Origin: Candidatus Iainarchaeum sp.
Lineage (GTDB): Archaea > Iainarchaeota > Iainarchaeia > Iainarchaeales > 0-14-0-20-30-16
Assembly (NCBI GenBank): GCA_903916665.1
Contig: CAIWXP010000021.1
Coordinates: 1-10,874 of the forward strand
Length of the DNA stretch: 10,874 nucleotides
Reading direction: 5' to 3'
Both the position numbers and the translations under genes were made by a program. The notes under the pieces are model-generated. The model was not told the DNA's origin. It made no database searches and worked only from the letters and a program-made list of their open reading frames with translations. Position 1 is the first letter of the stretch; the number at the start of each line of letters is the position of its first letter. Of the stretch, positions 16 to 10,786 are shown piece by piece.

Positions 16-486
16 ATGAATGAAAATAATAAATCTGTTTTGGTATATGGGGACTATGTTTTGAAGTATAAATCAAAATTAGGTTTAGGAGAAACACAGG
101 AAATATCTGTTTATGATGTAAATAATAATATTCAAATAAATAAAACAGTTATTATTGAATATAGCGATAAGAATTGGCAATATAATACGGATGAAAATGG
201 AAAAGTTATTTTTATTCCAATATATGAAGGAACCTATAAATTGGCAGTGCCCTATCCAGAAGAAAGAGTATCTGGAGAATTTAATGTTATAAAAGATTAT
301 GTAAGTAGTAATAGTGATTTTGTTGAAATAGTAAGTAGCGATAAAACAGCTGGGATGAGTTCAACAACAAAAACAACATTGATTGTTTCTGGATCTGTTG
401 TTTTATTATTAGGATTAGGTGTATTATTATACTTTTTGTTAAAACCTAAAATAACTGGGCCCTATGAATTTAAGCCAGTAAATTAA
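16..486 (+). CDS. Putative surface/secreted protein with C-terminal transmembrane anchor (possibly 5'-partial)
   Basis: ORF ends at TAA 484-486. The frame stays open from nt 1 to the ATG at 16 (aaa tta aat aaa gat atg), so the gene may continue upstream of the window. From M16 there is no N-terminal signal peptide. The middle (TDENGKVIFIPIYEGTYKLAV) looks like a small beta-sandwich, carboxypeptidase-regulatory-like repeat. A Ser/Thr-rich linker (SSTTKTT) is followed by a hydrophobic helix LIVSGSVVLLLGLGVLLYFLL (about nt 376-441), then KPK and an 11-aa tail. No recognisable enzyme motif. Confidence 0.5.
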   Translation: MNENNKSVLVYGDYVLKYKSKLGLGETQEISVYDVNNNIQINKTVIIEYSDKNWQYNTDENGKVIFIPIYEGTYKLAVPYPEERVSGEFNVIKDYVSSNSDFVEIVSSDKTAGMSSTTKTTLIVSGSVVLLLGLGVLLYFLLKPKITGPYEFKPVN

Positions 487-1551
487 TTATTTTAATTCTA
501 ATTTTTGTTGTTTGTTTTCACCAAAGGTTGTTACTTTATTTCTGCCGGTTTTTTTAGATTCATACAATGCATCATCGGCCAAAGAAATTAATTTTTCAAC
601 AACTTTTTTATCTATTAATTTTGTTGTTTGATTTAAATGTTTCAAAGTAGATACGCCTAAACTAGCAGTAACTGTTATTTCTAAACCATTTGTTATATAG
701 CAAGTTTTGGAAATTATATTTTCTCTAATTCTTGCAGCAATAATTTGTGCATTTTCTAAAGTAGTATTTGGTAAAACAATAATAAATTCTTCTCCTCCCC
801 AACGAACTGCTAAATCTCTTGCACTATTGGGTCTAGAAGTAGTTCTAACTCTTGTTAATATTCTTTGAGAGATTTGTCTTAATACTAAATCCCCTGCATC
901 ATGACCATAGGTATCATTTATTTTTTTAAAAAAATCAATATCAATCATAATTACAGAAACATTTTCTGGTTTCTTCATTAAAATTTCTTTTAATTCAAAA
1001 TCAAATTCTTTTCTTGTTATTAATGAAGTTAATTTATCAAATCTATTGTACATCATTTGCGAAACACTACTAAATACTGTTCCTAAAAACATCATTGTAT
1101 CTCTAATATTAACAATTCTTCTTTTTGTTTTTTCCAATGTTAAATTAGTTCCACAAAAAGTTATTACTCCGATTCTAATTATATCTCCATCCTGTTGTTC
1201 GATATAAACTGGAATAATAATTTTATTGCCATAGAATTTTGTTTTTAAGTCATCTGTTTTTGCCTTAATATCTCCAATGTGATTTGAGAATATATATTTT
1301 TTTGTATAATCTAAATAAACAAAATCTAAATTCTCCAATGCTAGGTTTTCTTCGGTTAGGTCTTTATTTTTTGTATCTCCCAAAATATTTGATTTAATAA
1401 AACTATCTCCAGATTTGTGGTAAAAGGTAATAGTCTCTGCTTTGGGAAACTCTTTGGCTATTTCTAAAATATACTCAAAAACACTAATGAATTTGGTATT
1501 TTGTAACCGAAGATACTTGTACAACAATAAATATAATTTTTTAAAATTCAT
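487..1551 (-). CDS. GAF-like sensor domain + GGDEF domain diguanylate cyclase (predicted catalytically competent)
   Basis: 354-aa ORF. The C-terminal half carries the full GGDEF signature: IMIDIDFFKKINDTYGHDAGDLVL (metal/guanine-binding D, N and D retained, closely resembling Caulobacter PleD as I recall it), RWGGEEFIIVLP (the GGEEF codons are nt 784-798 on the minus strand, read directly), TASLGVS, and ADDALYESKKTGRNKV. The N-terminal ~165 aa (FEYILEIAKEFPKAETITFYH...IIIPVYIEQQDGDIIRIGVITFCG) looks like a GAF-type small-molecule sensor fold. The allosteric I-site RxxD, expected five residues before GGEEF, reads SARD, so it is non-canonical. The stop abuts the stop of the convergent upstream ORF. 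Confidence 0.9.
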   Translation of the reverse strand: MNFKKLYLLLYKYLRLQNTKFISVFEYILEIAKEFPKAETITFYHKSGDSFIKSNILGDTKNKDLTEENLALENLDFVYLDYTKKYIFSNHIGDIKAKTDDLKTKFYGNKIIIPVYIEQQDGDIIRIGVITFCGTNLTLEKTKRRIVNIRDTMMFLGTVFSSVSQMMYNRFDKLTSLITRKEFDFELKEILMKKPENVSVIMIDIDFFKKINDTYGHDAGDLVLRQISQRILTRVRTTSRPNSARDLAVRWGGEEFIIVLPNTTLENAQIIAARIRENIISKTCYITNGLEITVTASLGVSTLKHLNQTTKLIDKKVVEKLISLADDALYESKKTGRNKVTTFGENKQQKLELK

Positions 1552-1699
1552 GAAATCGCCTTTCAGCTATAAAATATAACTTTAAAATTAGGATTTAATA
1601 TAAGTTATAGGCTTATATTTAAATAATTTGCTATTTTTGGAGGCAACCTTTATATAGGTTTGCTCAGAATAAATATATAATCTAATTTCTATCACACTA
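1552..1699. promoter_or_regulatory. Divergent intergenic region with archaeal TATA-like boxes for rpoH operon (+) and GGDEF gene (-)
   Basis: + strand: TTTATATA at 1649-1656 and TAAATATATA at 1670-1679, placed about 60 and 40 nt upstream of the rpoH start. - strand: TATA-like TTTTATAG (complement of 1567-1574) and AAATATAA (complement of 1613-1620). In DNA this AT-rich, TATA-like strings are frequent, so the exact boxes are uncertain. Confidence 0.3.
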
Positions 1700-1714
1700 T
1701 TGTGGGGGATCTTT

Positions 1715-1948
1715 TTGGCAGTTTTTGATATTACTAAACACTTTTTGGTACCGAAACATCTAATTTTAACAAAAGAAGAGGAAGAAGTACTCTTAAAAAA
1801 ATATAATATAACTAAGGCTGAATTGCCCAAAATTAAGAATAGCGATCCAGCAATAACACAATATAAACCTAAGCAGGGAGATATTGTAAAAATTGATAGA
1901 AGATCTGTTTATGGCGATTCTATAAAATACTATAGAGTTGTGGTATAA
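1715..1948 (+). CDS. rpoH: DNA-directed RNA polymerase subunit H (Rpo5/RpoH)
   Basis: The translation FDITKHFLVPKHLILTKEEEEVLLKKYNITKAELPKIKNSDPAITQYKPKQGDIVKIDRRSVYGDSIKYYRVVV matches the archaeal RpoH / Rpb5 C-terminal domain pattern (HxLVPKH, LPKI, DP, GD(V/I)VKI, YR). It sits in the canonical position directly upstream of rpoB. There is no in-frame ATG or GTG, so the candidate starts are TTG 1700 (track) or TTG 1715. I prefer 1715 because GGGGGA (1704-1709) lies 5 nt upstream and the resulting N-terminus length matches typical RpoH. Confidence 0.85.
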   Translation: MAVFDITKHFLVPKHLILTKEEEEVLLKKYNITKAELPKIKNSDPAITQYKPKQGDIVKIDRRSVYGDSIKYYRVVV

Positions 1949-1964
1949 GTAGGCCTGGGTGGTT

Positions 1965-3431
1965 ATGATGGGACAAGGCTGGGAATTAATTAAAGCTTAT
2001 TATAAAGAAAACAACGCAATTCAACAAAATATAGATTCTTATAATCAATTTATATTTGATAAAGTACCTAAAATTATTCAAGAAAATTCATCTATATTAT
2101 CAAGAGTTGAAGATGTTGAAGTAAGATTAAATAATATACAAATTTTACATCCTCAATTGGTTGAAGAAGATGGATCAAGAAGAACTGATTTTTTTCCAAT
2201 GGAAGCTCGTTTAAGAGATAAAACATACACGGCTCCTTTGTTTGCAGATATTGAATTATACAGAAAAGGTGTTTTGCAAGACACTAAAAGAACAGCAATT
2301 GGTGAATTACCAGTAATGTTAAAATCAAAATTGTGTAATTTGTGTGGATTAAAAGAAGATGACCTAATTAAAGCAGGAGAAGATCCTAAAGATTTAGGTG
2401 GCTATTTTGTTGTAAATGGTGTTGAAAAGGTTTTGGTAAACCAAGAAGTTTTGGCATCAGATAAGATTATGGTTTCAATGGATGGTAATAAAGCAATTTC
2501 AGAAGTGCTTTCTACAAGGGGGGCATTTAAAGGAAAAGTTAAATTAGTTAGAAATCCAAATGGAATTTTAGAAATAAGTTTTCCATCAAGTCCTAAGAAA
2601 TTAAAATTCTTTGTATTATTAAGAGCATTGGGATTCAAAGTAAAAGAAGAATTCATTAATGCATTTGAAAAAATACCAGAAGTACAAAATGATGTTCTAT
2701 TAAACTATTCTAGATTAAGTTTAGAAAGTGAAGAAGAAGCATTGGATCAAATTGGAAAGTATGTTGCTCCTGGTCAAATATTAGCCTATAGATTAAAGAG
2801 AACCTACGAAATTATTGATAACTTTTTATTACCTCATATTGGTCAAAGTGAAGATAAGAGAAACTTGAAAGCCTATTACCTAATTGGAATGGCACAGAGA
2901 GCTATTGAATTGTCCTATGGCATGAGAGAAGAAGATGATAGAGATAGTTATCATAATAAAAGAGTGGAATTATCTGGTAAATTATTGGAAAGAGAATTCA
3001 TGCAAGCTTTCAATTATTTTATTAATGATATTAAATTCCAAATTGATAGAAATATTGTTAGAAGAAGAAGATTAAAGATTAATACAATTATTAGACCCGA
3101 TGTTATTACAGATAGAATAATGTTTGGAATGGCAACAGGAACTTGGGCAGGAAAATTAACCGGTGTAAGTTCATTTTTCACAAGATATAATTTTATGAAT
3201 CCCATTATTGAATCAAGAAAAGTAAAATCTACTTTAGATAGTTCAAGAGAAAATTATGAAGCAAGATCTGTACATGGAACAGCATGGGGAAGAGTTTGTC
3301 CAATTGAAACACCGGATGGACCAAATTGTGGATTGATTAAAAATCTAGCAATAATGGCAAGAGTAACAACAGATTATGAGGGCAATGATTTAGAACCTCT
3401 ATTAAGAAAATTGAATGTTTACGAGAAGTGA
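1965..3431 (+). CDS. rpoB2: DNA-directed RNA polymerase subunit B'' (N-terminal half of split Rpo2)
   Basis: N-terminal RpoB motifs are present: WELIKAYYKENNAIQQNIDSYNQFI, GGYFVVNGVEKVLVNQE, HNKRVELSGKLL, and CPIETPDGPNCGLIKNLA near the C-terminus. It ends at TGA 3429-3431, at the split point typical of archaea with a divided B subunit. The track start GTG 1959 is probably over-extended; ATG 1965 or 1968 follows the GGGTGG SD (1957-1962). Confidence 0.95.
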   Translation: MMGQGWELIKAYYKENNAIQQNIDSYNQFIFDKVPKIIQENSSILSRVEDVEVRLNNIQILHPQLVEEDGSRRTDFFPMEARLRDKTYTAPLFADIELYRKGVLQDTKRTAIGELPVMLKSKLCNLCGLKEDDLIKAGEDPKDLGGYFVVNGVEKVLVNQEVLASDKIMVSMDGNKAISEVLSTRGAFKGKVKLVRNPNGILEISFPSSPKKLKFFVLLRALGFKVKEEFINAFEKIPEVQNDVLLNYSRLSLESEEEALDQIGKYVAPGQILAYRLKRTYEIIDNFLLPHIGQSEDKRNLKAYYLIGMAQRAIELSYGMREEDDRDSYHNKRVELSGKLLEREFMQAFNYFINDIKFQIDRNIVRRRRLKINTIIRPDVITDRIMFGMATGTWAGKLTGVSSFFTRYNFMNPIIESRKVKSTLDSSRENYEARSVHGTAWGRVCPIETPDGPNCGLIKNLAIMARVTTDYEGNDLEPLLRKLNVYEK

Positions 3432-3436
3432 TGTTG

Positions 3437-3511
3437 TTATGGCAAAGTTGATAATTTCATAAAAAATTGAAATTATGCAACATATGCCACAAAACAGGTG
3501 TGAATTTTATG
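3437..3511 (+). promoter_or_regulatory. Leader-like module copy 1 (mini-ORF MAKLIIS + bulged hairpin + SD) in the rpoB2-rpoB1 spacer
   Basis: By hand alignment about two-thirds identical, and collinear, with 9217-9292. This includes the identical 12-mer AGTTGATAATTT (3446-3457). Hairpin: GTTGATAAT (3447-3455) pairs with ATTATgCAAC (3472-3481, g3477 bulged) around a 16-nt A-rich loop. Mini-ORF: ATG 3439 to TAA 3460-3462. SD AGGTGTGA (3496-3503) precedes ATG 3509. Confidence 0.4.
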
Positions 3512-5323
3512 GCAAGCGATAAAGCAAAAATTTATTTAGATGGTAAATTAATTGGATTTCATAATGATCCTCAGAATTTAATTGTTAATTTAAAAGATCA
3601 AAGAAGACATGGTCAATTGGATTCATTAATTAATATTGGTTACAAAGAAGATACTAATGAAGTATATATTAATACTGGAGCAGGAAGATTACAAAGACCT
3701 GTTATAACTTTGAAAGATGGAAAACCAATATTAACTCAAGATCACATAACAAATATTCAAAGTGGAAAAATAAAATTTGATGACCTATTAAAAAAAGGAA
3801 TTGTTGAATACATAGATGCAGATGAAGAAGATAATTTATATATTGGAACAAATGCAGATCATTTGACAAAAGAACATACACACATCGAATTGGAACCTGC
3901 AAGTATTTTTAGTTTTGTTACTTCTTTAACACCATTTGTTCAACACAATTTAGCAACCAAAGCATTGCACGGAGCAAAAATGTGTAAACAAGGAATTGGT
4001 TTTATTGGACCAAATCATCACTTGAGAACAGATACAGAATATTATAATTTATATTATCCACAAAAACAATTAGTAAAAACAAAAATGTCCGATGTTATGG
4101 GCATCGACGATCGTCCTATTATTCAAAATTTTGTTGTTGCAATTATTCCCTATTATGGTTATAATACTCAGGATGCAATTGTAATAAATAAAGGTGCTGT
4201 TCAAAGAGGATTAGGAAGAACTGTTTATTATAGAACCTATACTGAAAGAGAAGTTACCTATCCTGGTGGGCAAAAAGAAATATTTTCTATCCCAACAGAA
4301 ACTACTAAAGGATATTTAGGTGAAGATGCCTATAAAATAATTGGTTTAGATGCATTACCTGAAACAGAAAGTTACGTTGATAGAAATACTGTTTTAATTG
4401 CAAAAATTGCACCTCCTAGATTTATGGATAGTTTACCAGCTCTAGGATTAGTTGAAGATAAATTTGAAGATAAATCATTTTTTATAAAAAAGAATACTGA
4501 AGGATATGTTGATAAAGTATATATTTCAAGTTCAGGAAATGAAAGATTATTAAAAGTAAAAATAAGAACACAAAGAATTCCAGAAAATGGAGATAAATTT
4601 TCTTCAAAGCACGGACAGAAAGGTGTTGTTGGAATGTTGGCAGAAGAATGTGATATGCCCGTTAGTGTTAATGGAATTATTCCAGATTTATTATTAAATC
4701 CAACATCAATTTCATCAAGAATGACAATTGGAGATTTATTGGAAGCATTATCTGGTAAGGCAGCATGTTTAAGAGGAAAAGAAGTGGATGGAACTCCTTT
4801 TTCAAATGAAGAACCGGATGATATTAAAAAGAATTTAATTGATGCAGGATTTAGACCCGATGGCTATGAAACATTCTATGATGGTACAACTGGACAATTA
4901 ATCCAAGGAGAAATTTACGTTGGAGTAATTGCATACAGAAGATTATACCACATGGTAAAAAATAAAATGCAAGCAAGAGCTAGAGGACCAGTACAATTGT
5001 TAACTAGACAACCCACTGAAGGAAAAGAAAAAGAAGGTGGATTGAAGTTTGGTGAAATGGAATCAGATTGTTTGGTTGGCTATGGTGCAGCAATGTTATT
5101 GAATGAAAAATTAGTTGAAGATTCTGATAAAGTTGTTTTGCCTGTTTGTAGTGACTGTGGAATTATTGCTATTGATGATAAAGTACAAGGAAAATTATAT
5201 TGCCCAAGTTGTAATGGCTATTCAGTTATTGAAGTTTCAATGCCCTATTCATTTAAATTATTTTTAGATGAATTAAAATCTATTGCAATATATCCTAAAA
5301 TAAAAATAAAAGATTTGGCTTGA
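3509..5323 (+). CDS. rpoB1: DNA-directed RNA polymerase subunit B' (C-terminal half of split Rpo2)
   Basis: Motifs: GDKFSSKHGQKGVVG, RGPVQLLTRQPTEGKEKEGGLKFGEMESDCLVGYGAA, and a C-terminal zinc ribbon CSDCG...CPSCNG. The N-terminus MASDKAKIYLDGKLIGF matches the usual B' start. ATG 3509 is preceded by SD AGGTGTGA at 3496-3503. The track start TTG 3467 adds 14 unsupported residues. Confidence 0.95.
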   Translation: MASDKAKIYLDGKLIGFHNDPQNLIVNLKDQRRHGQLDSLINIGYKEDTNEVYINTGAGRLQRPVITLKDGKPILTQDHITNIQSGKIKFDDLLKKGIVEYIDADEEDNLYIGTNADHLTKEHTHIELEPASIFSFVTSLTPFVQHNLATKALHGAKMCKQGIGFIGPNHHLRTDTEYYNLYYPQKQLVKTKMSDVMGIDDRPIIQNFVVAIIPYYGYNTQDAIVINKGAVQRGLGRTVYYRTYTEREVTYPGGQKEIFSIPTETTKGYLGEDAYKIIGLDALPETESYVDRNTVLIAKIAPPRFMDSLPALGLVEDKFEDKSFFIKKNTEGYVDKVYISSSGNERLLKVKIRTQRIPENGDKFSSKHGQKGVVGMLAEECDMPVSVNGIIPDLLLNPTSISSRMTIGDLLEALSGKAACLRGKEVDGTPFSNEEPDDIKKNLIDAGFRPDGYETFYDGTTGQLIQGEIYVGVIAYRRLYHMVKNKMQARARGPVQLLTRQPTEGKEKEGGLKFGEMESDCLVGYGAAMLLNEKLVEDSDKVVLPVCSDCGIIAIDDKVQGKLYCPSCNGYSVIEVSMPYSFKLFLDELKSIAIYPKIKIKDLA

Positions 5324-5334
5324 GTGGTGGGATA

Positions 5335-7965
5335 ATGTTTAAGAGAATTGGTGCTTTAAAGTTAGGTGTTTACTCACCCGAACAAATTAGAAAAATGTCA
5401 GTTATAGAAATCAAAACATCTGATCTATATGATAAAGATGGATTTCCTATTGAAGGAGGGTTAATGGATCCTCATTTAGGTATTGCAGATAGAGGAAGAC
5501 GTTGTAAGACCTGTGGTCAAACCGTTGAAAAATGTGTTGGACACTTTGGTAGATTAGAATTAGTTAGACCTGTAATACATGTTGGTTTTTTTAAGAAAGT
5601 AGATTTTTTAGTAAATACTACCTGTAGAAATTGTGGTAAATTATTATTCTCAGATGCAGAAATTGAAACATTGAGAAATAGAGATTCTGATGTTGAAGAA
5701 TTGCATAGAGCAATGTTGGTAAAAGCAAAAGGAAAAACAACTTGTCCCTATTGTGCAACACAAAAATTAATAACTAAATTAGATCCTCCAACAAATTTTT
5801 ACACAATTGAAAAAGAAGAAGGAGTAGATAAATTAACAAGATTATTTCCAAATCAAATTAGAGAATGGTTTGTTAAAATACCTACCAATGATTTAGAAAA
5901 AGTTGGAATGAAAAATGTTAGACCAGAATGGTTTATTTTAACAGTATTTCCAATTCCTCCTGTAAACGTTCATCCACCAATAACATTGGATAATGGATTA
6001 AAATCAGAGGATGATTTAACCTATAAATTATCTGATATTGTTACAGTTAATAATAGATTAAGAGATAACATAAATGCAGGAACTCCGCAATTAATTATTG
6101 AAGATTTGTGGATGCTATTGCAATACAATATTACAACCTATATTAATAATAATTCTCCTGGTGTCCCTCCTGCAAAACACAGATCAGGAAGACCATTAAA
6201 AACAATTATACAAAGAATAAAAGGTAAGGGCGGAATAATTAGAAATAATCTAATGGGAAAAAGAGTTAATTATGCTGCAAGAACAACAATAACTCCAGAT
6301 ATGTTTATTGGTGTTGATGAAATTGGATTACCAAAAGAAATTGCAGACACATTAACAATAAAAGAAAAAATAACAGATTATAATTTAGAATTATATAAAG
6401 AAATGTTACAAAATAAAAATGTAATAAAATATGTAATTAGACCCGATGGTTCAAGAAAAAAAGTTAGTGCAGAATTAAGAGAACAATTGTTAGTAGATTT
6501 AGCACCAAAATATATTATTGAAAGATCTCTAATAGAAGGAGATTATGTGTTATTTAATAGACAACCAACTTTACATAAAGGTTCTATTATGGCACATAAA
6601 GTAAAAATTACAAATGGAAATACATTTAGAATGAATGGATCTTCTACTCAGCCTTACAACGCAGATTTCGATGGAGATGAAATGAACGTACATGTTCCTC
6701 AAACTCCCGAGGGTATAATGGAAACAAAAGAATTAATTTCTTTAAAACAACAATTAATTTCTCCAAGATCAGGGGACCCTGCAATAGTATTAATGGAAGA
6801 TGCAATTGCTGGAACATTTATGTTAACTTTTCCAACAATGAAAATATCTAGAGATTTGGCAATGCATTATTTCCATATAATGGGATTAGAAAATATAATT
6901 TTACCAAACAATGGTGACGAATATACAGGAAAAGAAATATTTAGTGCATTATTACCAAAAGATATTAATATGACTTTTGAATCGGCAGAAATTTCAGGAA
7001 TATTAAAATCAATTAATCCTGAAAATCCAGTGTATAAAATAATTAAAAAAGAATTAGTTGTTAATATCGAAAATGGAATATTAAAATCTGGTTGTTTTGG
7101 TGTTTGTGGTGTTGGAAAAAAAGGTGCAAAAATTGTACAAGAAATTTATGATAGACACGGACCAGATGCTGTAATTGAATTCTATAATAAATTAGGAATT
7201 ATAGCTTCTGATTTAGCAACAAGATATGGATTAAGTTTAGGTTTAAGAGATTATAATTTACCAGAAAGTTTTGAAGGTTTTAAAGAAAGTAAATTAGATG
7301 ACTTCTTTAAAGAAACAAGAAATTTTGAAAAAAAATATAAAGAAGGAAAGTTAGAAAAGGTTCCTGGTAAAAGTATTAAAGAATCTTTTGAATATTACAT
7401 GATGAGAAGTGGAGCAATTTGTAAAGATGATATTGAAAAATATATCTTAAATGAAAGAATTGCAGATTTATTTTGTGATAAACCAATCTATGGTGCTTTG
7501 GTATTAGCATTATCTGGTGCAAAAGGTTCTAGTGTAAATTTAACAAATGTTGCAGGACTTTGGGGTCAGGTAGCAGTAAGAGAAAAAAGACCCTATAGAG
7601 GATTTTCACAAAGAGTATTACCAATGTATAAAAGAGGAGATGAAGGTCCATTAGCAAGAGGTTTTGTAACAAAGAATTTTTTGAAAGGATTATCTCCAAG
7701 AGAAACTTTTTTCCACGCAATGGGTGGTAGAGAAGGAGAAGTAGACACAGCGGTTGCAACAAAAGTATCAGGATATTTGTATAGAAGAGTTTCTAATGCA
7801 ATGAGAGATATAATTGTTTTCCAAGATAGAAGTGCAAGAACAGTTGATAATAAATTAATACAGTATAAATATGGTGATGATGGTTGCTATACTCAAAATA
7901 CAAATAGAGGACTATTGTTTACTGATTCAAGATTGAGACACATCTTGGAAAAGATGGATAATTAA
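5335..7965 (+). CDS. rpoA1: DNA-directed RNA polymerase subunit A' (N-terminal part of split Rpo1)
   Basis: Motifs: zinc site CKTCGQTVEKCVGHFG, second zinc site CRNCG...CPYC, catalytic YNADFDGDEMNVHVPQT, and bridge helix FFHAMGGREGEVDTAVATKVSGYLYRRV. Start ATG 5335 (MFKRIGALKLGVYSPEQIRKMSV) has GGTG at 5326-5329. The track start TTG 5320 overlaps the rpoB1 stop and is probably over-extended. Confidence 0.97.
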   Translation: MFKRIGALKLGVYSPEQIRKMSVIEIKTSDLYDKDGFPIEGGLMDPHLGIADRGRRCKTCGQTVEKCVGHFGRLELVRPVIHVGFFKKVDFLVNTTCRNCGKLLFSDAEIETLRNRDSDVEELHRAMLVKAKGKTTCPYCATQKLITKLDPPTNFYTIEKEEGVDKLTRLFPNQIREWFVKIPTNDLEKVGMKNVRPEWFILTVFPIPPVNVHPPITLDNGLKSEDDLTYKLSDIVTVNNRLRDNINAGTPQLIIEDLWMLLQYNITTYINNNSPGVPPAKHRSGRPLKTIIQRIKGKGGIIRNNLMGKRVNYAARTTITPDMFIGVDEIGLPKEIADTLTIKEKITDYNLELYKEMLQNKNVIKYVIRPDGSRKKVSAELREQLLVDLAPKYIIERSLIEGDYVLFNRQPTLHKGSIMAHKVKITNGNTFRMNGSSTQPYNADFDGDEMNVHVPQTPEGIMETKELISLKQQLISPRSGDPAIVLMEDAIAGTFMLTFPTMKISRDLAMHYFHIMGLENIILPNNGDEYTGKEIFSALLPKDINMTFESAEISGILKSINPENPVYKIIKKELVVNIENGILKSGCFGVCGVGKKGAKIVQEIYDRHGPDAVIEFYNKLGIIASDLATRYGLSLGLRDYNLPESFEGFKESKLDDFFKETRNFEKKYKEGKLEKVPGKSIKESFEYYMMRSGAICKDDIEKYILNERIADLFCDKPIYGALVLALSGAKGSSVNLTNVAGLWGQVAVREKRPYRGFSQRVLPMYKRGDEGPLARGFVTKNFLKGLSPRETFFHAMGGREGEVDTAVATKVSGYLYRRVSNAMRDIIVFQDRSARTVDNKLIQYKYGDDGCYTQNTNRGLLFTDSRLRHILEKMDN

Positions 7966-7975
7966 CGGTGATGAT

Positions 7976-9190
7976 ATGCAAGAATTACCAACTTATATGA
8001 CTAAAAAAATAAATGATTTTGTAGAAAAAAATGCATTAACAGGAAGAAGAAAAGAAAAATTTTTAGAATCTTGTGATGCATATTATGAAGAAAATCAAGT
8101 TCCTATCTATGAGCCTGTTGGAATATTAACTGCACATAGTATGTGTGAACCAGCAACTCAGATGACATTGAGAACAAAGCACTACGCGGGTGCTGCCGAA
8201 GTTTCTGTTGGATCAGGAATAAAAAGATTGGAAGAATTAGTGGATGCAAGAAATAAAACAAAATATCCAGTTATGACATTATTTATTAGAGAAGGATTGA
8301 AGACAGATAAAAATTCAATGGAAAATTATTTGAAACAAATAATTTACAAAAAGTTTTCTGATATTGTAACAATAAAAGAAAATTTAGAAAAAACAAGAAT
8401 AACTGTTATATATGATACAAAAACTTTGAATGAATATAATTTGAAAAAAGAAGATTTGTATAAAACATTAAAAGGAATATTAAAATTAAGTGTAATTGTA
8501 GAAATTGAAAATGGTTTTGAAGTTTCATTTAAAGAACAAACATTATTAACAGTAAGAAAATATTTTATGAAGTTATTAGATTTAGGATTTATTGGTATAG
8601 TTGGAATTCAAGATGCAATAATTGCTGATGAATTTGGCGAAACAGTAATAAAAACTCAAGGATCAAATTTAAAAGATATTTCTGGTTTAGAATTTGTTGA
8701 TGTTTATAGATCTTACACCAATGATATTTTTGAAATATATAAAGTATTTGGAATTGAATCTGCAAGAGAATTATTAGTAAGAGAAATTGCAGAAGTATAT
8801 AAAAAATCAGGAATTCCTGTTGATCTAAGACACATATTACTTTTAGTGGACGCAATGTGCTACGATGGTGAAGTTTTAGGTGTGGTAAGAACTGGTATTA
8901 TTAGTACTAAGAAAAGTCCATTTGCAAGAGCTGCATTTGAACAAACCGAAAAAGTTTTATTTAACTCTGCATTGTACGGAGAAGAAGAAGAATTTGAAGG
9001 TGTTGTTGAGAATGTAATGGCGGGTCTTCCAATAAATATTGGTGTTGGAAGAGTTAATTTAGAAATGGATTTTACAAAAATACCTAGAGACAAAGATAAT
9101 CCTGCGGCAGTTTTAAAAAAGAAAGCAGCAGAAATTAAAGTTGCAGGCTCAAAAACATCGGAAGAAATAAAAGCAGAATTGGGCATTTAA
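7976..9190 (+). CDS. rpoA2: DNA-directed RNA polymerase subunit A'' (C-terminal part of split Rpo1, trigger loop)
   Basis: Trigger-loop region CEPATQMTLRTKHYAGAAEVSVGSGIKRLEELVDAR and a C-terminal AAFEQT...GLPINIGVG-type motif. ATG 7976 is preceded by GGTGAT (7967-7972), 10 nt after the rpoA1 stop. Confidence 0.95.
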   Translation: MQELPTYMTKKINDFVEKNALTGRRKEKFLESCDAYYEENQVPIYEPVGILTAHSMCEPATQMTLRTKHYAGAAEVSVGSGIKRLEELVDARNKTKYPVMTLFIREGLKTDKNSMENYLKQIIYKKFSDIVTIKENLEKTRITVIYDTKTLNEYNLKKEDLYKTLKGILKLSVIVEIENGFEVSFKEQTLLTVRKYFMKLLDLGFIGIVGIQDAIIADEFGETVIKTQGSNLKDISGLEFVDVYRSYTNDIFEIYKVFGIESARELLVREIAEVYKKSGIPVDLRHILLLVDAMCYDGEVLGVVRTGIISTKKSPFARAAFEQTEKVLFNSALYGEEEEFEGVVENVMAGLPINIGVGRVNLEMDFTKIPRDKDNPAAVLKKKAAEIKVAGSKTSEEIKAELGI

Positions 9191-9206
9191 TATTATAATT
9201 TATAAT

Positions 9207-9292
9207 GGGTGAATTTTTATGGTGCAGTTGATAATTTTTCAGAAAGAAAAGATTATACAACAGGCATCATAAATAAAGGGGAGATATTTATG
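9207..9292 (+). promoter_or_regulatory. Leader-like module copy 2 (SD + 17-codon mini-ORF + bulged hairpin + SD) upstream of rpl30e
   Basis: GGGTGA (9207-9212) lies 6 nt before ATG 9219, which opens MVQLIIFQKEKIIQQAS ending at TAA 9270-9272. Hairpin: GTTGATAAT (9227-9235) pairs with ATTATaCAAC (9252-9261, a9257 bulged) around a 16-nt loop, the same geometry as copy 1. From the TTATGG core start to the downstream main ATG is 73 nt here and 72 nt in copy 1. Confidence 0.4.
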
Positions 9293-9586
9293 ACAATAGA
9301 AGTTGAATTGAAAAGAGCATTTAAAACAGGAACTATTAAAATAGGTTTAAAAGATACTGAAAAATGTGTGTTATTTGGAAGTTCTAAAGGAGTGGTAATG
9401 TCACTAAATGCTTTAGAAGCAGATAAACTAAGATTAAAGTATTTTTGTGAATTGACAAAGATACCCTTTGTTTTAGTAAATCATATTCCTACTGAGTTAG
9501 GAAAAGTAATTGGATTAGCCTATCCTGTTAGTGCAGTTAGTGTTGTAGATGAAGGAAAATCTAAAATATTATCTGAATTGGCATAA
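9290..9586 (+). CDS. rpl30e: 50S ribosomal protein L30e (eL30)
   Basis: The 98-aa product MTIEVELKRAFKTGTIKIGLKDTEKCVLFGSSKGVVMSLN...ELGKVIGLAYPVSAVSVVDEGKSKILSELA fits the L7Ae/L30e fold pattern, and the gene sits in the canonical position after rpoA2. SD GGGGAG (9278-9283) lies 6 nt before ATG 9290. The track start GTG 9209 adds 27 residues with no homology-like support. Confidence 0.85.
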   Translation: MTIEVELKRAFKTGTIKIGLKDTEKCVLFGSSKGVVMSLNALEADKLRLKYFCELTKIPFVLVNHIPTELGKVIGLAYPVSAVSVVDEGKSKILSELA

Positions 9587-9602
9587 ATAGTTACATTTTT
9601 AA

Positions 9603-9645
9603 AGAAAAAGGACGTAATTATATTACCTTTTTCTAGTTTTTATTT
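9603..9645 (+). terminator. Hairpin plus oligo-T tracts downstream of rpl30e (terminator-like)
   Basis: AGAAAAAGG (9603-9611) pairs perfectly with CCTTTTTCT (9626-9634) around a 14-nt loop. T5 runs occur at 9628-9632 and 9637-9641, then TTT at 9643-9645. Archaeal RNAP is known to terminate at oligo-dT tracts. The position, 17 nt after the rpl30e stop, fits. Confidence 0.4.
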
Positions 9646-9675
9646 AAAACTAAGTTAAATTTTTAGAAAATTGTT

Positions 9676-9700
9676 AAAATTTTATATTTTTATATTTTGA
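9676..9700 (+). promoter_or_regulatory. TATA-like box(es) upstream of rps12
   Basis: AAAATTTTATATTTTTATATTTTGA. The TTTATATT box at 9681-9688 ends 22 nt before ATG 9710, compatible with a leaderless or very short-leader transcript. Alternatively GAGTGAT (9699-9705) serves as an SD. The 14-mer AAATTTTATATTTT recurs upstream of rps7. Confidence 0.3.
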
Positions 9701-9709
9701 GTGATATGA

Positions 9710-10138
9710 ATGAGTAATGGTGAATTTGCAGCAAGAAAAATGATTAAAGATAAGAAAAAATGGCAAAAAAAACAAGGAAAGTTTATGAAGAAGTGGAAAA
9801 GAGACACTGGTAATCTAAAGGACCCTTTTGATGGTGCTCCTATGAGATCGGGGATTGTTTTGGCAAAAAGAACAGTTGAAGCAAAACAGCCAAACTCAGG
9901 ATTAAGAAAATGTGTAAGAGTACAATTAACAAATGGTGTAAAAGTTACAGCATTGGCCCCTAAAGATGGTGCAATAAAATATATTGATCAACATGATGAA
10001 GTAACAATATCTGGTATTAACGGATCTAAGGGTGGACCAAAAGGAGATCTTTGGGGTGTGTCATATAAGGTTGAAAAAGTTAATGGTATATCTTTAGAAC
10101 AATTAAGAAAAGGAAAGAAAGAAAAAACAAAGAGATAA
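9710..10138 (+). CDS. rps12: 30S ribosomal protein S12 (uS12)
   Basis: Archaeal/eukaryotic-type uS12 signature: FAARKM, DPFDGAPMRSGIVL, VEAKQPNSGLRKCVRVQL, DGAIKYIDQHDEV, GDLWGVSYKVEKVNG. Confidence 0.95.
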   Translation: MSNGEFAARKMIKDKKKWQKKQGKFMKKWKRDTGNLKDPFDGAPMRSGIVLAKRTVEAKQPNSGLRKCVRVQLTNGVKVTALAPKDGAIKYIDQHDEVTISGINGSKGGPKGDLWGVSYKVEKVNGISLEQLRKGKKEKTKR

Positions 10139-10157
10139 TTATTAAATTAAAATGTAT

Positions 10158-10172
10158 AAATTTTATATTTTG
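10158..10172 (+). promoter_or_regulatory. TATA-like box upstream of rps7 (repeat of the rps12 upstream box)
   Basis: AAATTTTATATTTTG at 10158-10172. Its first 14 nt are identical to 9677-9690. It ends only about 15 nt before ATG 10187, which is short for a canonical TATA-to-TSS distance, so promoter function is uncertain. Confidence 0.2.
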
Positions 10173-10186
10173 GAAAAGGGATAAAC

Positions 10187-10786
10187 ATGAGAGTTTTTGG
10201 AAAATGGGATGCTAGCGAAATAAAAATAAAAGATGCAGGATTAGTTCCATATATTACTTTGGAAAATAAATTATCTATGCATACTTTTGGTGCATCAACA
10301 GCACAGGGAAAAAGTAAAGAAAGAATTAATATTATTGAAAGATTAGTAAATAAATTAATGAGATCTGGACAGGGTAAGAAAAAATTAGGTGGAAAATTTT
10401 ATAGAGGAAGATTAAACTGCGGAAAAAAATTATTATCATTAAAAGCAGTTGATGAAGCTTTCGATACTATAAATAAAAAAACAGGAAAAAATCCAATACA
10501 AGTTTTTATTGAAGCATTGGAAAACTCAACACCTAATGAAGATGTAACAAGAATTACAAAAGGTGGAGTTGCATCTGCAGAATCAGTTGATGTTGCACCA
10601 ATTAAAAAATTAGATGAAGCAATAAAAAATATTGTTTTAGCAACATTTGCAAATACATTTAGTTCAAAAAATACATTTTCAGATACTTTGGCTAGCGAAA
10701 TAATGTTAGCTGCAAGTAAAGATCAAAAAAGTTATTCAATTAAAAGAAAAGATGAAATTGAAAGAATTGCAAGATCATCAAGATAG
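10187..10786 (+). CDS. rps7: 30S ribosomal protein S7 (uS7)
   Basis: Archaeal uS7 pattern: FGKWDASEIKIKDAGLVPYI, IIERLVNKLMRSG, NPIQVFIEALENSTPNEDVTRI, KRKDEIERIARSSR at the C-terminus. Canonical position after rps12. AAGGG (10176-10180) lies 6 nt before the ATG. Confidence 0.95.
   Translation: MRVFGKWDASEIKIKDAGLVPYITLENKLSMHTFGASTAQGKSKERINIIERLVNKLMRSGQGKKKLGGKFYRGRLNCGKKLLSLKAVDEAFDTINKKTGKNPIQVFIEALENSTPNEDVTRITKGGVASAESVDVAPIKKLDEAIKNIVLATFANTFSSKNTFSDTLASEIMLAASKDQKSYSIKRKDEIERIARSSR

Follow-up and report, generated by a model that had tools for sequence, protein, structure and literature searches.

A GGDEF diguanylate cyclase gene, probably active, beside the RNA polymerase operon of a DPANN archaeon

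Cyclic di-GMP (c-di-GMP), which is made by diguanylate cyclases with a GGDEF domain, has been called “nearly unique to bacteria”, and archaeal genes for GGDEF proteins or receptors have been left unconfirmed or ascribed to contamination (PMC5847659, PMC10086821, PMC12448109). The archaeal cases include the GGDEF protein CAJ37382 of Methanocella arvoryzae and inactivated REC-GGDEF proteins of “Ca. Micrarchaeum acidiphilum”, for which contamination was left open (Galperin et al. 2018; PMC5847659), and a receptor paper from 2025 blames contamination for the archaeal matches (PMC12448109). Here, we describe a gene for a GGDEF protein on a contig of 10,874 nucleotides assigned to “Ca. Iainarchaeum” sp. 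(CAIWXP010000021.1 in assembly GCA_903916665.1), the whole of which is called the window below. A reading of the window without database searches (the original prediction) had identified the gene as an intact, horizontally acquired diguanylate cyclase, and had stated that c-di-GMP signalling is essentially bacterial, with no archaeal pathway characterised. The reviews agree with the latter statement (PMC10249747, PMC5847659), and a literature search, with most subscription journals outside its coverage, retrieved nothing on this family or on any archaeal diguanylate cyclase. The protein is a new and probably active member of a well-known enzyme type in an archaeon, while there is no archaeon for which the messenger itself has been demonstrated. 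The gene is likely to be native to, and vertically inherited in, a narrow DPANN clade and to encode a diguanylate cyclase that is active and regulated by a ligand, with activity being a prediction.

The complete coding sequence (487..1551, minus strand, ATG at 1551-1549) encodes 354 amino acids and was delimited with the list of open reading frames (ORFs), GGDEF hidden Markov models (HMMs) and an alignment of 11 orthologues (A1) that spans 43-78% overall protein identity. An identical protein is present in NCBI/ENA (P0001). The GGDEF catalytic domain covers residues 171-341 (529..1041, minus strand), as delineated by PF00990, phmmer and model superposition. It scores 133.5 bits against PF00990 in Pfam over residues 171-339 (cutoff 23.8) and 143.7 bits against TIGR00254 in NCBIfam (cutoff 37.4), and the phmmer matches include PleD, WspR and DosC. 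All motif coordinates, which refer to the minus strand, were checked by direct translation, and the residue numbers of PleD were counted on the phmmer alignment to 1w25. The segment DIDFFKKINDTYGHDAGD (889..942) holds the metal-binding Asp residues, the Lys, and the guanine-recognising Asn212 and Asp221, while the GGEEF motif of the A-site (residues 252-256; 784..798) follows an invariant R250-W251 pair, and ADDALYESKKTGRNKV (532..579), which aligns with ADEGVYQAKASGRNAV in PleD, contains the C-terminal phosphate-binding Lys333 and Arg337. In the alignment to PleD, D204 and D206 (DID) correspond to D327 and D329, K209 to K332, N212 to N335, D221 to D344, R250 to R366, GGEEF to residues 368-372, and K333 and R337 to K442 and R446, such that every catalytic position of PleD is identical in the protein of the window.

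These residues are also conserved within the family. D204, D206, K209, N212, D221, R250 and GGEEF are invariant in 11 of 11 orthologues, as are D326, Y330, K333, G336, R337 and N338 in the C-terminal part, and three distant relatives described below retain GGEEF, the metal-binding Asp pair, K209, N212, D221, R250, K333 and R337. Since Asp221, the equivalent of D344 in PleD, is retained, the protein is not of the Hypr type, which makes cyclic GMP-AMP (cGAMP). Among the functional elements of the domain, the I-site alone varies between the orthologues. The sequence at this position in the window, five residues before GGEEF, is the non-canonical SARD (814..825), and a canonical RxxD is found only in P0008 (RAKD) and P0009 (RLQD), while the other members of the alignment have xxRD. 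Classical product inhibition is therefore probably weak or absent in the protein of the window, although the lack of RxxD is compatible with membership of the GGDEF family, as many active cyclases have no I-site. The original prediction had described these same features, namely a complete set of catalytic elements with GGEEF at nt 784-798, a guanine-specifying Asp and a lost I-site, and translation and alignment agree with it on each of them. The AlphaFold2 (AF2) model of the full protein has a mean predicted local distance difference test score (pLDDT) of 84, and Foldseek aligns the GGDEF half of this predicted structure with 3ign, 4wxw, 5euh and 4zvh with target-based template modelling scores (TMt) of 0.82-0.86 and root mean square deviations of 2.2-3.2 Å. 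All seven coding sequences of the family for which DNA was available are intact. Together with the invariant catalytic residues and a ratio of nonsynonymous to synonymous substitutions (dN/dS) below 1, this suggests that the diguanylate cyclase is likely to be functional.

The genomic setting of the gene is archaeal. It is placed head to head with rpoH (1715..1948, plus strand; 77 amino acids with a TTG start, identified by translation and PF01191, Rpb5_C), the first gene of the RNA polymerase operon, and rpoH orthologues of 77 amino acids with a TTG start are present in all compared loci. The genes that follow on the plus strand (1959..10786) were assigned with Pfam to the split Rpb2 and Rpb1 subunits, rpoB'' (1959-3431), rpoB' (3506-5323), rpoA' (5320-7965) and rpoA'' (7976-9190), and beyond these to L30e (L7Ae/L30e), uS12 (S12/S23) and uS7. 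The cyclase gene stands head to head with rpoH-rpoB''-rpoB' in every relative whose contig was readable, which amounts to about 12 contigs (L001, L002, L003/L004, L005, L006, L012, L013, L021, L023 and L024) from different samples and assemblers, with at least eight sequence types and orthologues that are 43-78% identical. These include a contig of 42.5 kb (L001), a GTDB species representative (L006), three metagenome contigs from JGI (L021, L023 and L024) and a contig of a metagenome-assembled genome from NCBI (L013), whose end truncates the cyclase gene to 65 codons, all of them the same as in L012. The full-length relatives P0002-P0009 have identities of 47-78%, below which there is an abrupt drop to matches that cover the GGDEF half only. 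On the 42.5-kb contig, the genes beyond the cyclase gene are likewise archaeal and encode L44e, SMC and an aminoacyl-tRNA synthetase. Consistently, the GC content at third codon positions (GC3) is 0.16 in the cyclase gene as compared with 0.09-0.21 in the RNA polymerase and ribosomal protein genes, and its synonymous codon usage correlates with that of the rest of the window (r = 0.94). As the same junction recurs in so many contigs of different origin and sequence type, a recurrent chimera is not credible, and the cyclase gene is a genuine chromosomal gene of an archaeon rather than a contaminant or a chimera. The archaeal nature of the other genes on the contig, a codon usage like that of the neighbours and the rejection of a binning artefact, as set out in the original prediction, are all borne out by these comparisons, and the syntenic orthologues that it suggested looking for are present.

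An insertion of a gene for a Na+/Ca2+ exchanger of about 325 amino acids (PF01699) between rpoH and the cyclase gene in one sub-lineage (L002:8892-9863, plus strand, and L024:7154-8137, plus strand) is the sole break in this otherwise fixed pair. In the window, the two genes are separated by an intergenic region of 163 nt (1552..1714) rather than the approximately 150 nt first estimated, with the conserved TTG start codon of rpoH at 1715; the divergent arrangement as such was correctly recognised. An alignment of this region from eight loci (A5) contains two conserved AT-rich boxes with a spacing of about 20 nt, ATTTAAATA (1617-1625), which is a candidate TATA box of the cyclase gene when read on the minus strand, and AACCTTTATATA (1645-1656, plus strand), which resembles a B recognition element (BRE) and TATA box facing rpoH. 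A further conserved block, TAAATATAT, is located at 1670-1678, and a GGGGG Shine-Dalgarno sequence of rpoH is located at 1704-1708 on the plus strand (GGGGG or GGAGG among the loci). The conserved blocks suggest back-to-back archaeal core promoters, with predicted transcription starts near 1596 (minus strand) and 1680 (plus strand).

A compact group of metagenomic proteins, which includes that of “Candidatus Diapherotrites archaeon CG08_land...” (GCA_002779075.1), shares 72-85% identity with RpoB' of the window, and many further proteins with the labels Diapherotrites or Micrarchaeota share 52-57%. The closest RpoB' relatives with a name are from metagenome-assembled genomes of “Candidatus Diapherotrites archaeon”. 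This identifies the host as a DPANN archaeon from a clade that is labelled “Candidatus Diapherotrites” in NCBI. The cyclase gene is found beside rpoH in genomes with RpoB' identities of 83%, 82%, 76% and 72%, while other genes occupy this position at identities of 66% (L014), 60% (the contig with P0141) and 57% (L015), and a tblastn search detected no GGDEF domain anywhere in the outgroup loci L014 and L015. Within the clade, the divergence of the cyclase follows that of RpoB'' (Mantel r = 0.63, reached by 171 of 5040 permutations) and RpoH (r = 0.57, reached by 253 of 5040 permutations), as computed without one duplicate population (L012 and L023 being the same), and the cyclase evolves about three times faster than RpoB''. 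That the divergence of the cyclase tracks that of the RNA polymerase fits with a single acquisition followed by vertical descent.

The N-terminal domain (residues 1-144; 1120..1551, minus strand) is an alpha/beta sensor domain for which AF2 and Foldseek predict a GAF-like fold. The motifs RLQNT (residues 15-19) and IxxP (residues 111-114) are invariant in the family. The model of the isolated domain has a pLDDT of 84.2 and a predicted template modelling score (pTM) of 0.85, and the best matches in PDB are all GAF or phytochrome GAF modules, with weak E-values of 5e-3 to 4e-2 and template modelling (TM) scores of 0.44-0.58. No Pfam family, including the GAF families PF01590, PF13185 and PF13492, was detected in five N-terminal halves even at E ≤ 10, and an hhalign comparison of the sensor with the Pfam-recognised GAF halves of GAF-GGDEF proteins was null (probability 0.66%, E 0.086). 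These two comparisons and a BLASTP comparison with a GAF-GGDEF protein thus all failed to place the sensor in the GAF family by sequence. An exhaustive search with the sensor-domain HMM against 1.84 billion representative proteins gave six matches, which consisted of two family members, one fragment and three distant relatives, and a word-indexed search with the N-terminal alignment recovered known members only and did not widen the family. Thus, the GAF-like sensor of the original prediction is retained as a resemblance in predicted fold, with GAF modules as the top, though weak, Foldseek matches, but not for the sequence, and since Pfam and the profile-profile comparison were null, the domain is best described as an orphan that resembles GAF in its modelled fold and falls outside the GAF families.

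The sensor domain is connected to the GGDEF domain by a long helix (residues 145-171; 1039..1119, minus strand), for which DSSP assigns helical structure to residues 145-169 or 145-171 in the AF2 models. It carries the motif FSSxSQMxYxRxD, of which F160, S161, S162, S164, Q165, Y168, R170 and D172 are invariant in the 11 orthologues. The order of sensor, helix and GGDEF domain is the usual layout of dimeric cyclases that are controlled by helix register, and the modelled helix, which could form a coiled-coil dimer, presumably mediates dimerisation and signalling.

The three distant relatives, P0252 (414 amino acids), P0253 (397 amino acids) and P0254 (463 amino acids), have the same N-terminal domain (E 4e-13 to 5e-4) and an intact GGEEF domain, and are encoded by genomes that are less AT-rich (38-47% GC). 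The contig with P0253 (L017) also carries gyrB, gyrA and a gene for a triosephosphate isomerase (TIM) of 217 amino acids, which scores 240 bits on NF003302. This protein has scores of 117-173 bits against the short TIM chains 1hg3, 2h6r, 5csr and 1w0m, which we take to be those of Pyrococcus, Methanocaldococcus, Thermoplasma and Thermoproteus, and no more than 36 bits against all other TIMs. The archaeal type of the TIM suggests that this contig is archaeal, and by this marker at least one of the three distant relatives is located on an archaeal contig. Two other candidate markers were discarded. A tRNA-Gly of 92 nt on L017, reported by ARAGORN and considered as an archaeal intron marker, was a poor model that Rfam reads as an ordinary tRNA of 70 nt with a marginal score, and PyrG on L016 was uninformative about the domain of life, with 556 bits for Thermus and 549 bits for Sulfolobus. 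The genes for P0252 and P0253 are followed in the same orientation by a gene for a predicted membrane protein of about 210-220 amino acids (L016:1376-2038 and L017:11445-12071, both plus strand), the two copies of which are 47% identical and have two predicted hydrophobic segments. It matches no Pfam or NCBIfam family and is a candidate partner or effector. The same protein was rejected as the effector of the clade of the window, as it is absent from the loci of this clade, where the downstream genes vary.

The sensor domain suggests a common ancestry of the whole two-domain protein in the clade and its distant relatives, which the catalytic domain does not establish. The named best matches to the GGDEF domain are scattered over Aquificota, Alphaproteobacteria, Campylobacterota, Firmicutes and Gammaproteobacteria with identities of 43-47%. 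The narrow distribution and the bacterial-type sequence point to a horizontal origin. With respect to the ameliorated acquisition that had been proposed, the composition is indeed native, but the GGDEF tree did not find a donor lineage, and the transfer is one that distribution and sequence type suggest.

From these features, we infer that the protein dimerises, makes c-di-GMP under the control of a ligand and takes part in signalling. It would be a soluble cytoplasmic cyclase in which an N-terminal sensor with a GAF-like fold is followed by a long helix and a canonical GGDEF domain. By analogy with other sensor-GGDEF enzymes, two subunits would pair via their helices, with two GTP-loaded GGEEF sites facing each other and converting two GTP into c-di-GMP and two pyrophosphates, and the state of the sensor may set the register of the helix and hence the activity. 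Most likely, the ancestor of the clade took up the two-domain gene in a single event, with bacteria as the ultimate source. The gene would have landed upstream of rpoH, become fully ameliorated and then been inherited vertically under purifying selection, with a divergent promoter region that may be common to the cyclase gene and the RNA polymerase operon. That c-di-GMP is a real, regulated messenger in this DPANN lineage, with effectors unrelated to PilZ, MshEN and riboswitches and an output that may concern either transcription, through the divergent pairing with the RNA polymerase operon, or the attachment to partner cells, is a tentative extension, which we are more inclined to doubt than to accept.

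Several observations weigh against an active, ligand-regulated cyclase that was acquired once and inherited vertically. An intact GGEEF motif is no guarantee of activity, and the pairwise dN/dS values of 0.09-0.57 in both halves of the protein are only indicative, because synonymous sites are near saturation. By sequence, the sensor domain is related to none of the known ligand-binding families. The catalytic domains of the three distant relatives are 33-37% identical to that of the window, as compared with 43-47% for the best bacterial matches, and in the neighbour-joining tree the relatives group with the clade in 27 of 200 bootstraps, while the clade itself is recovered in 179 of 200. No sister group was supported in the neighbour-joining GGDEF tree, and hence no bacterial donor can be named. 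Furthermore, a review from 2023 states that there is no description of c-di-GMP in archaea and that Sulfolobus and Haloferax had no detectable c-di-GMP (PMC10249747). Finally, the Pfam annotations of the accessible flanks, which comprise about 40 kb of non-redundant sequence or less than 5% of a genome, include no EAL, HD-GYP, PilZ or MshEN domain, and an Rfam scan of 120 kb identified tRNAs only and no c-di-GMP riboswitch. Relaxed scans of ten unannotated neighbours gave nothing resembling a known c-di-GMP domain. The absence of effectors means little, however, with no more than a few per cent of each genome visible.

The missing turnover and receptor genes and riboswitches in the inspected flanks are also what would be expected if the enzyme were active in a non-classical role, in which c-di-GMP, linear pppGpG or pGpG, or another dinucleotide is exported to neighbouring or host cells or serves a housekeeping function, for example as a dinucleotide primer in transcription, with no need for a dedicated phosphodiesterase or receptor. 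The available accounts of the DPANN group, which describe reduced genomes and a probable dependence on other cells, would suit such a role, as would the loss of the product-inhibition site in most members and the linkage to the RNA polymerase operon, which together with the divergent promoter region is kept more tightly than any downstream gene. On the other hand, the visible fraction of the genomes gives the missing effectors little weight, the protein is cytoplasmic and has no signal peptide, transporter partner or export route, the retained guanine-specific Asn/Asp pair argues for the standard product of two guanines, and a sensor fused to a cyclase is a hallmark of regulated signalling. 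We regard a non-classical role as unlikely. It is still less probable that the protein is catalytically silent and acts as a regulator or scaffold that binds GTP or a dinucleotide, like some degenerate bacterial GGDEF proteins. While the inactivated REC-GGDEF protein of “Ca. Micrarchaeum” provides an earlier example (PMC5847659) and no partner enzymes are seen in the flanks, degenerate receptors typically lose residues of the A-site, all of which are invariant here and in the distant relatives, and GGDEF receptors that bind c-di-GMP normally use RxxD, which is the one element that is not conserved.

We consider a module for defence against viruses, composed of a cyclic-nucleotide generator and an effector, highly improbable. 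GGDEF-like palm domains make defence signals elsewhere, as in Cas10 (PMC2904730), the downstream neighbours vary, and one of them has a sub-threshold resemblance to YoeB/ParE toxins (L001). But PADLOC gave no match for the cyclase or its neighbour, there is no conserved adjacent effector, and a fixed place by a housekeeping operon throughout a clade, with co-divergence, is the opposite of the patchy, island-like occurrence of defence genes. By default, the field explains archaeal c-di-GMP genes by contamination from bacteria, mis-binning or chimeric joins (PMC5847659, PMC12448109), and the window is a single metagenomic contig of 10.9 kb. This explanation is effectively refuted by a junction that recurs in about 12 contigs of varied sample, assembler and sequence type, in which the orthologues are as little as 43% identical, by the conserved intergenic blocks, by a composition that is the same as that of the archaeal neighbours, and by the archaeal genes on the far side in the 42.5-kb contig. 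Among the rivals that remain, the likelihood decreases from a non-classical role over a non-catalytic binder to a defence module.

The downstream genes of the cyclase differ between the genomes of the clade, and the rpoH side is the only conserved partner. Homologous proteins with 30-37% identity are encoded directly downstream of, and co-oriented with, the cyclase gene in L012 (6148-6987, minus strand; 279 amino acids) and L005 (3103-3867, plus strand); they have no Pfam match and are absent from the window. In L001 (4814-5442, minus strand), two overlapping ORFs of 113 and 96 amino acids are located directly downstream of the cyclase gene, the first with the sub-threshold matches to YoeB/ParE mentioned above, and these are probably a type II toxin-antitoxin pair. 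In the window, the stop codon of the cyclase gene abuts that of a convergent ORF of 156 amino acids with a C-terminal hydrophobic anchor (16..486, plus strand). This ORF has no match in Pfam, NCBIfam or PADLOC, and sub-threshold resemblance to SdrD B-like and AglB_L1 domains suggests a small surface protein. A tblastn search against the other loci of the clade found it only in the window, and as it is not conserved beside the cyclase gene it is probably outside the system.

A few other features of these genomes were observed. Many archaea have nusA inside the operon that carries L30e and uS12, while here there is no nusA between the two genes but a gap of about 120-165 nt (9586-9710 in the window and 15996-16162 in L012). 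The elongation factor EF2 of the CG08 “Diapherotrites” population has 1264 amino acids and contains an intein with a LAGLIDADG endonuclease (L012:17470-21264 and L013:9454-13248). On the contig with P0141 from the DPANN outgroup (JGI 3300072015), adjacent genes for PycTM, a Pycsar effector transmembrane domain, and an Apyc1-like metallo-beta-lactamase are located about 3-5 kb upstream of rpoH, which by their Pfam matches are another pair related to cyclic nucleotides in an archaeal context.

The locus confirms an archaeal GGDEF protein for one family by its linkage to the RNA polymerase operon, native composition, conservation under selection and complete active site. It provides a contamination-proof case with which the question of whether any archaea use c-di-GMP becomes experimentally testable, and it defines a clade in which non-bacterial effectors of c-di-GMP can be sought. 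The host organisms are uncultivated, which limits the present reach into their biology. If c-di-GMP does serve as a messenger in this lineage, its pathway would be the first of this kind in archaea, and the relatives on L016 and L017 with their membrane-protein partner would imply a system of greater age and wider archaeal distribution than a single recent transfer accounts for. The chemistry of the enzyme is expected to be ordinary, and the interest of the locus is its presence in an unexpected domain of life.

Solved GGDEF domains share 31-37% identity with the catalytic domain. With cyclases of the PleD and WspR type (PF00990; PDB 1w25 and 3bre), it has DxD...K..N....GH..GD, RxGGEEF and AD..Y..K..GRN in common, as well as the predicted fold, with TMt of up to 0.86. 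It differs from PleD in that the input domain is not REC, there is no canonical RxxD, the host is an archaeon, and seven residues, TTSRPNS, are inserted before the position of the I-site. Dcsbis of P. aeruginosa (PDB 4zmu) matches the full model along its whole length, over 360 columns, and the GAF-GGDEF proteins P0029, P0096 and P0014, of about 338 amino acids, have a similar length and the same layout of sensor, long helix and GGDEF domain. In contrast to Dcsbis and the GAF-GGDEF cyclases, the sensor of the window protein has no Pfam match to GAF and is essentially restricted to its own family. A bacterial-type GGDEF cyclase outside Bacteria, DgcA of Dictyostelium, was reportedly described by Chen and Schaap in 2012, and its product is said to be a secreted morphogen. 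DgcA is similar in being placed in a non-bacterial lineage, where it uses c-di-GMP for a lineage-specific purpose without the bacterial effectors, but it is eukaryotic and its domain context is unrelated. In the Hypr enzymes, a Ser replaces the guanine-specifying Asp (D344 in PleD). The family of the window has the GGDEF fold and the GGEEF-type active site in common with these enzymes, but differs from them by the invariant Asp221. The synthesis of cGAMP by Hypr enzymes is credited to Hallberg et al. (2016; cited in PMC10249747). The cases of Methanocella and “Ca. Micrarchaeum” are similar in that a GGDEF domain was annotated in an archaeal genome, and “Ca. Micrarchaeum” is also a member of DPANN. 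Unlike the single or inactivated domains of these cases, and judging by their published descriptions, the family of the window has all its catalytic residues and another type of input domain, and its linkage to archaeal marker genes recurs across many independent assemblies.

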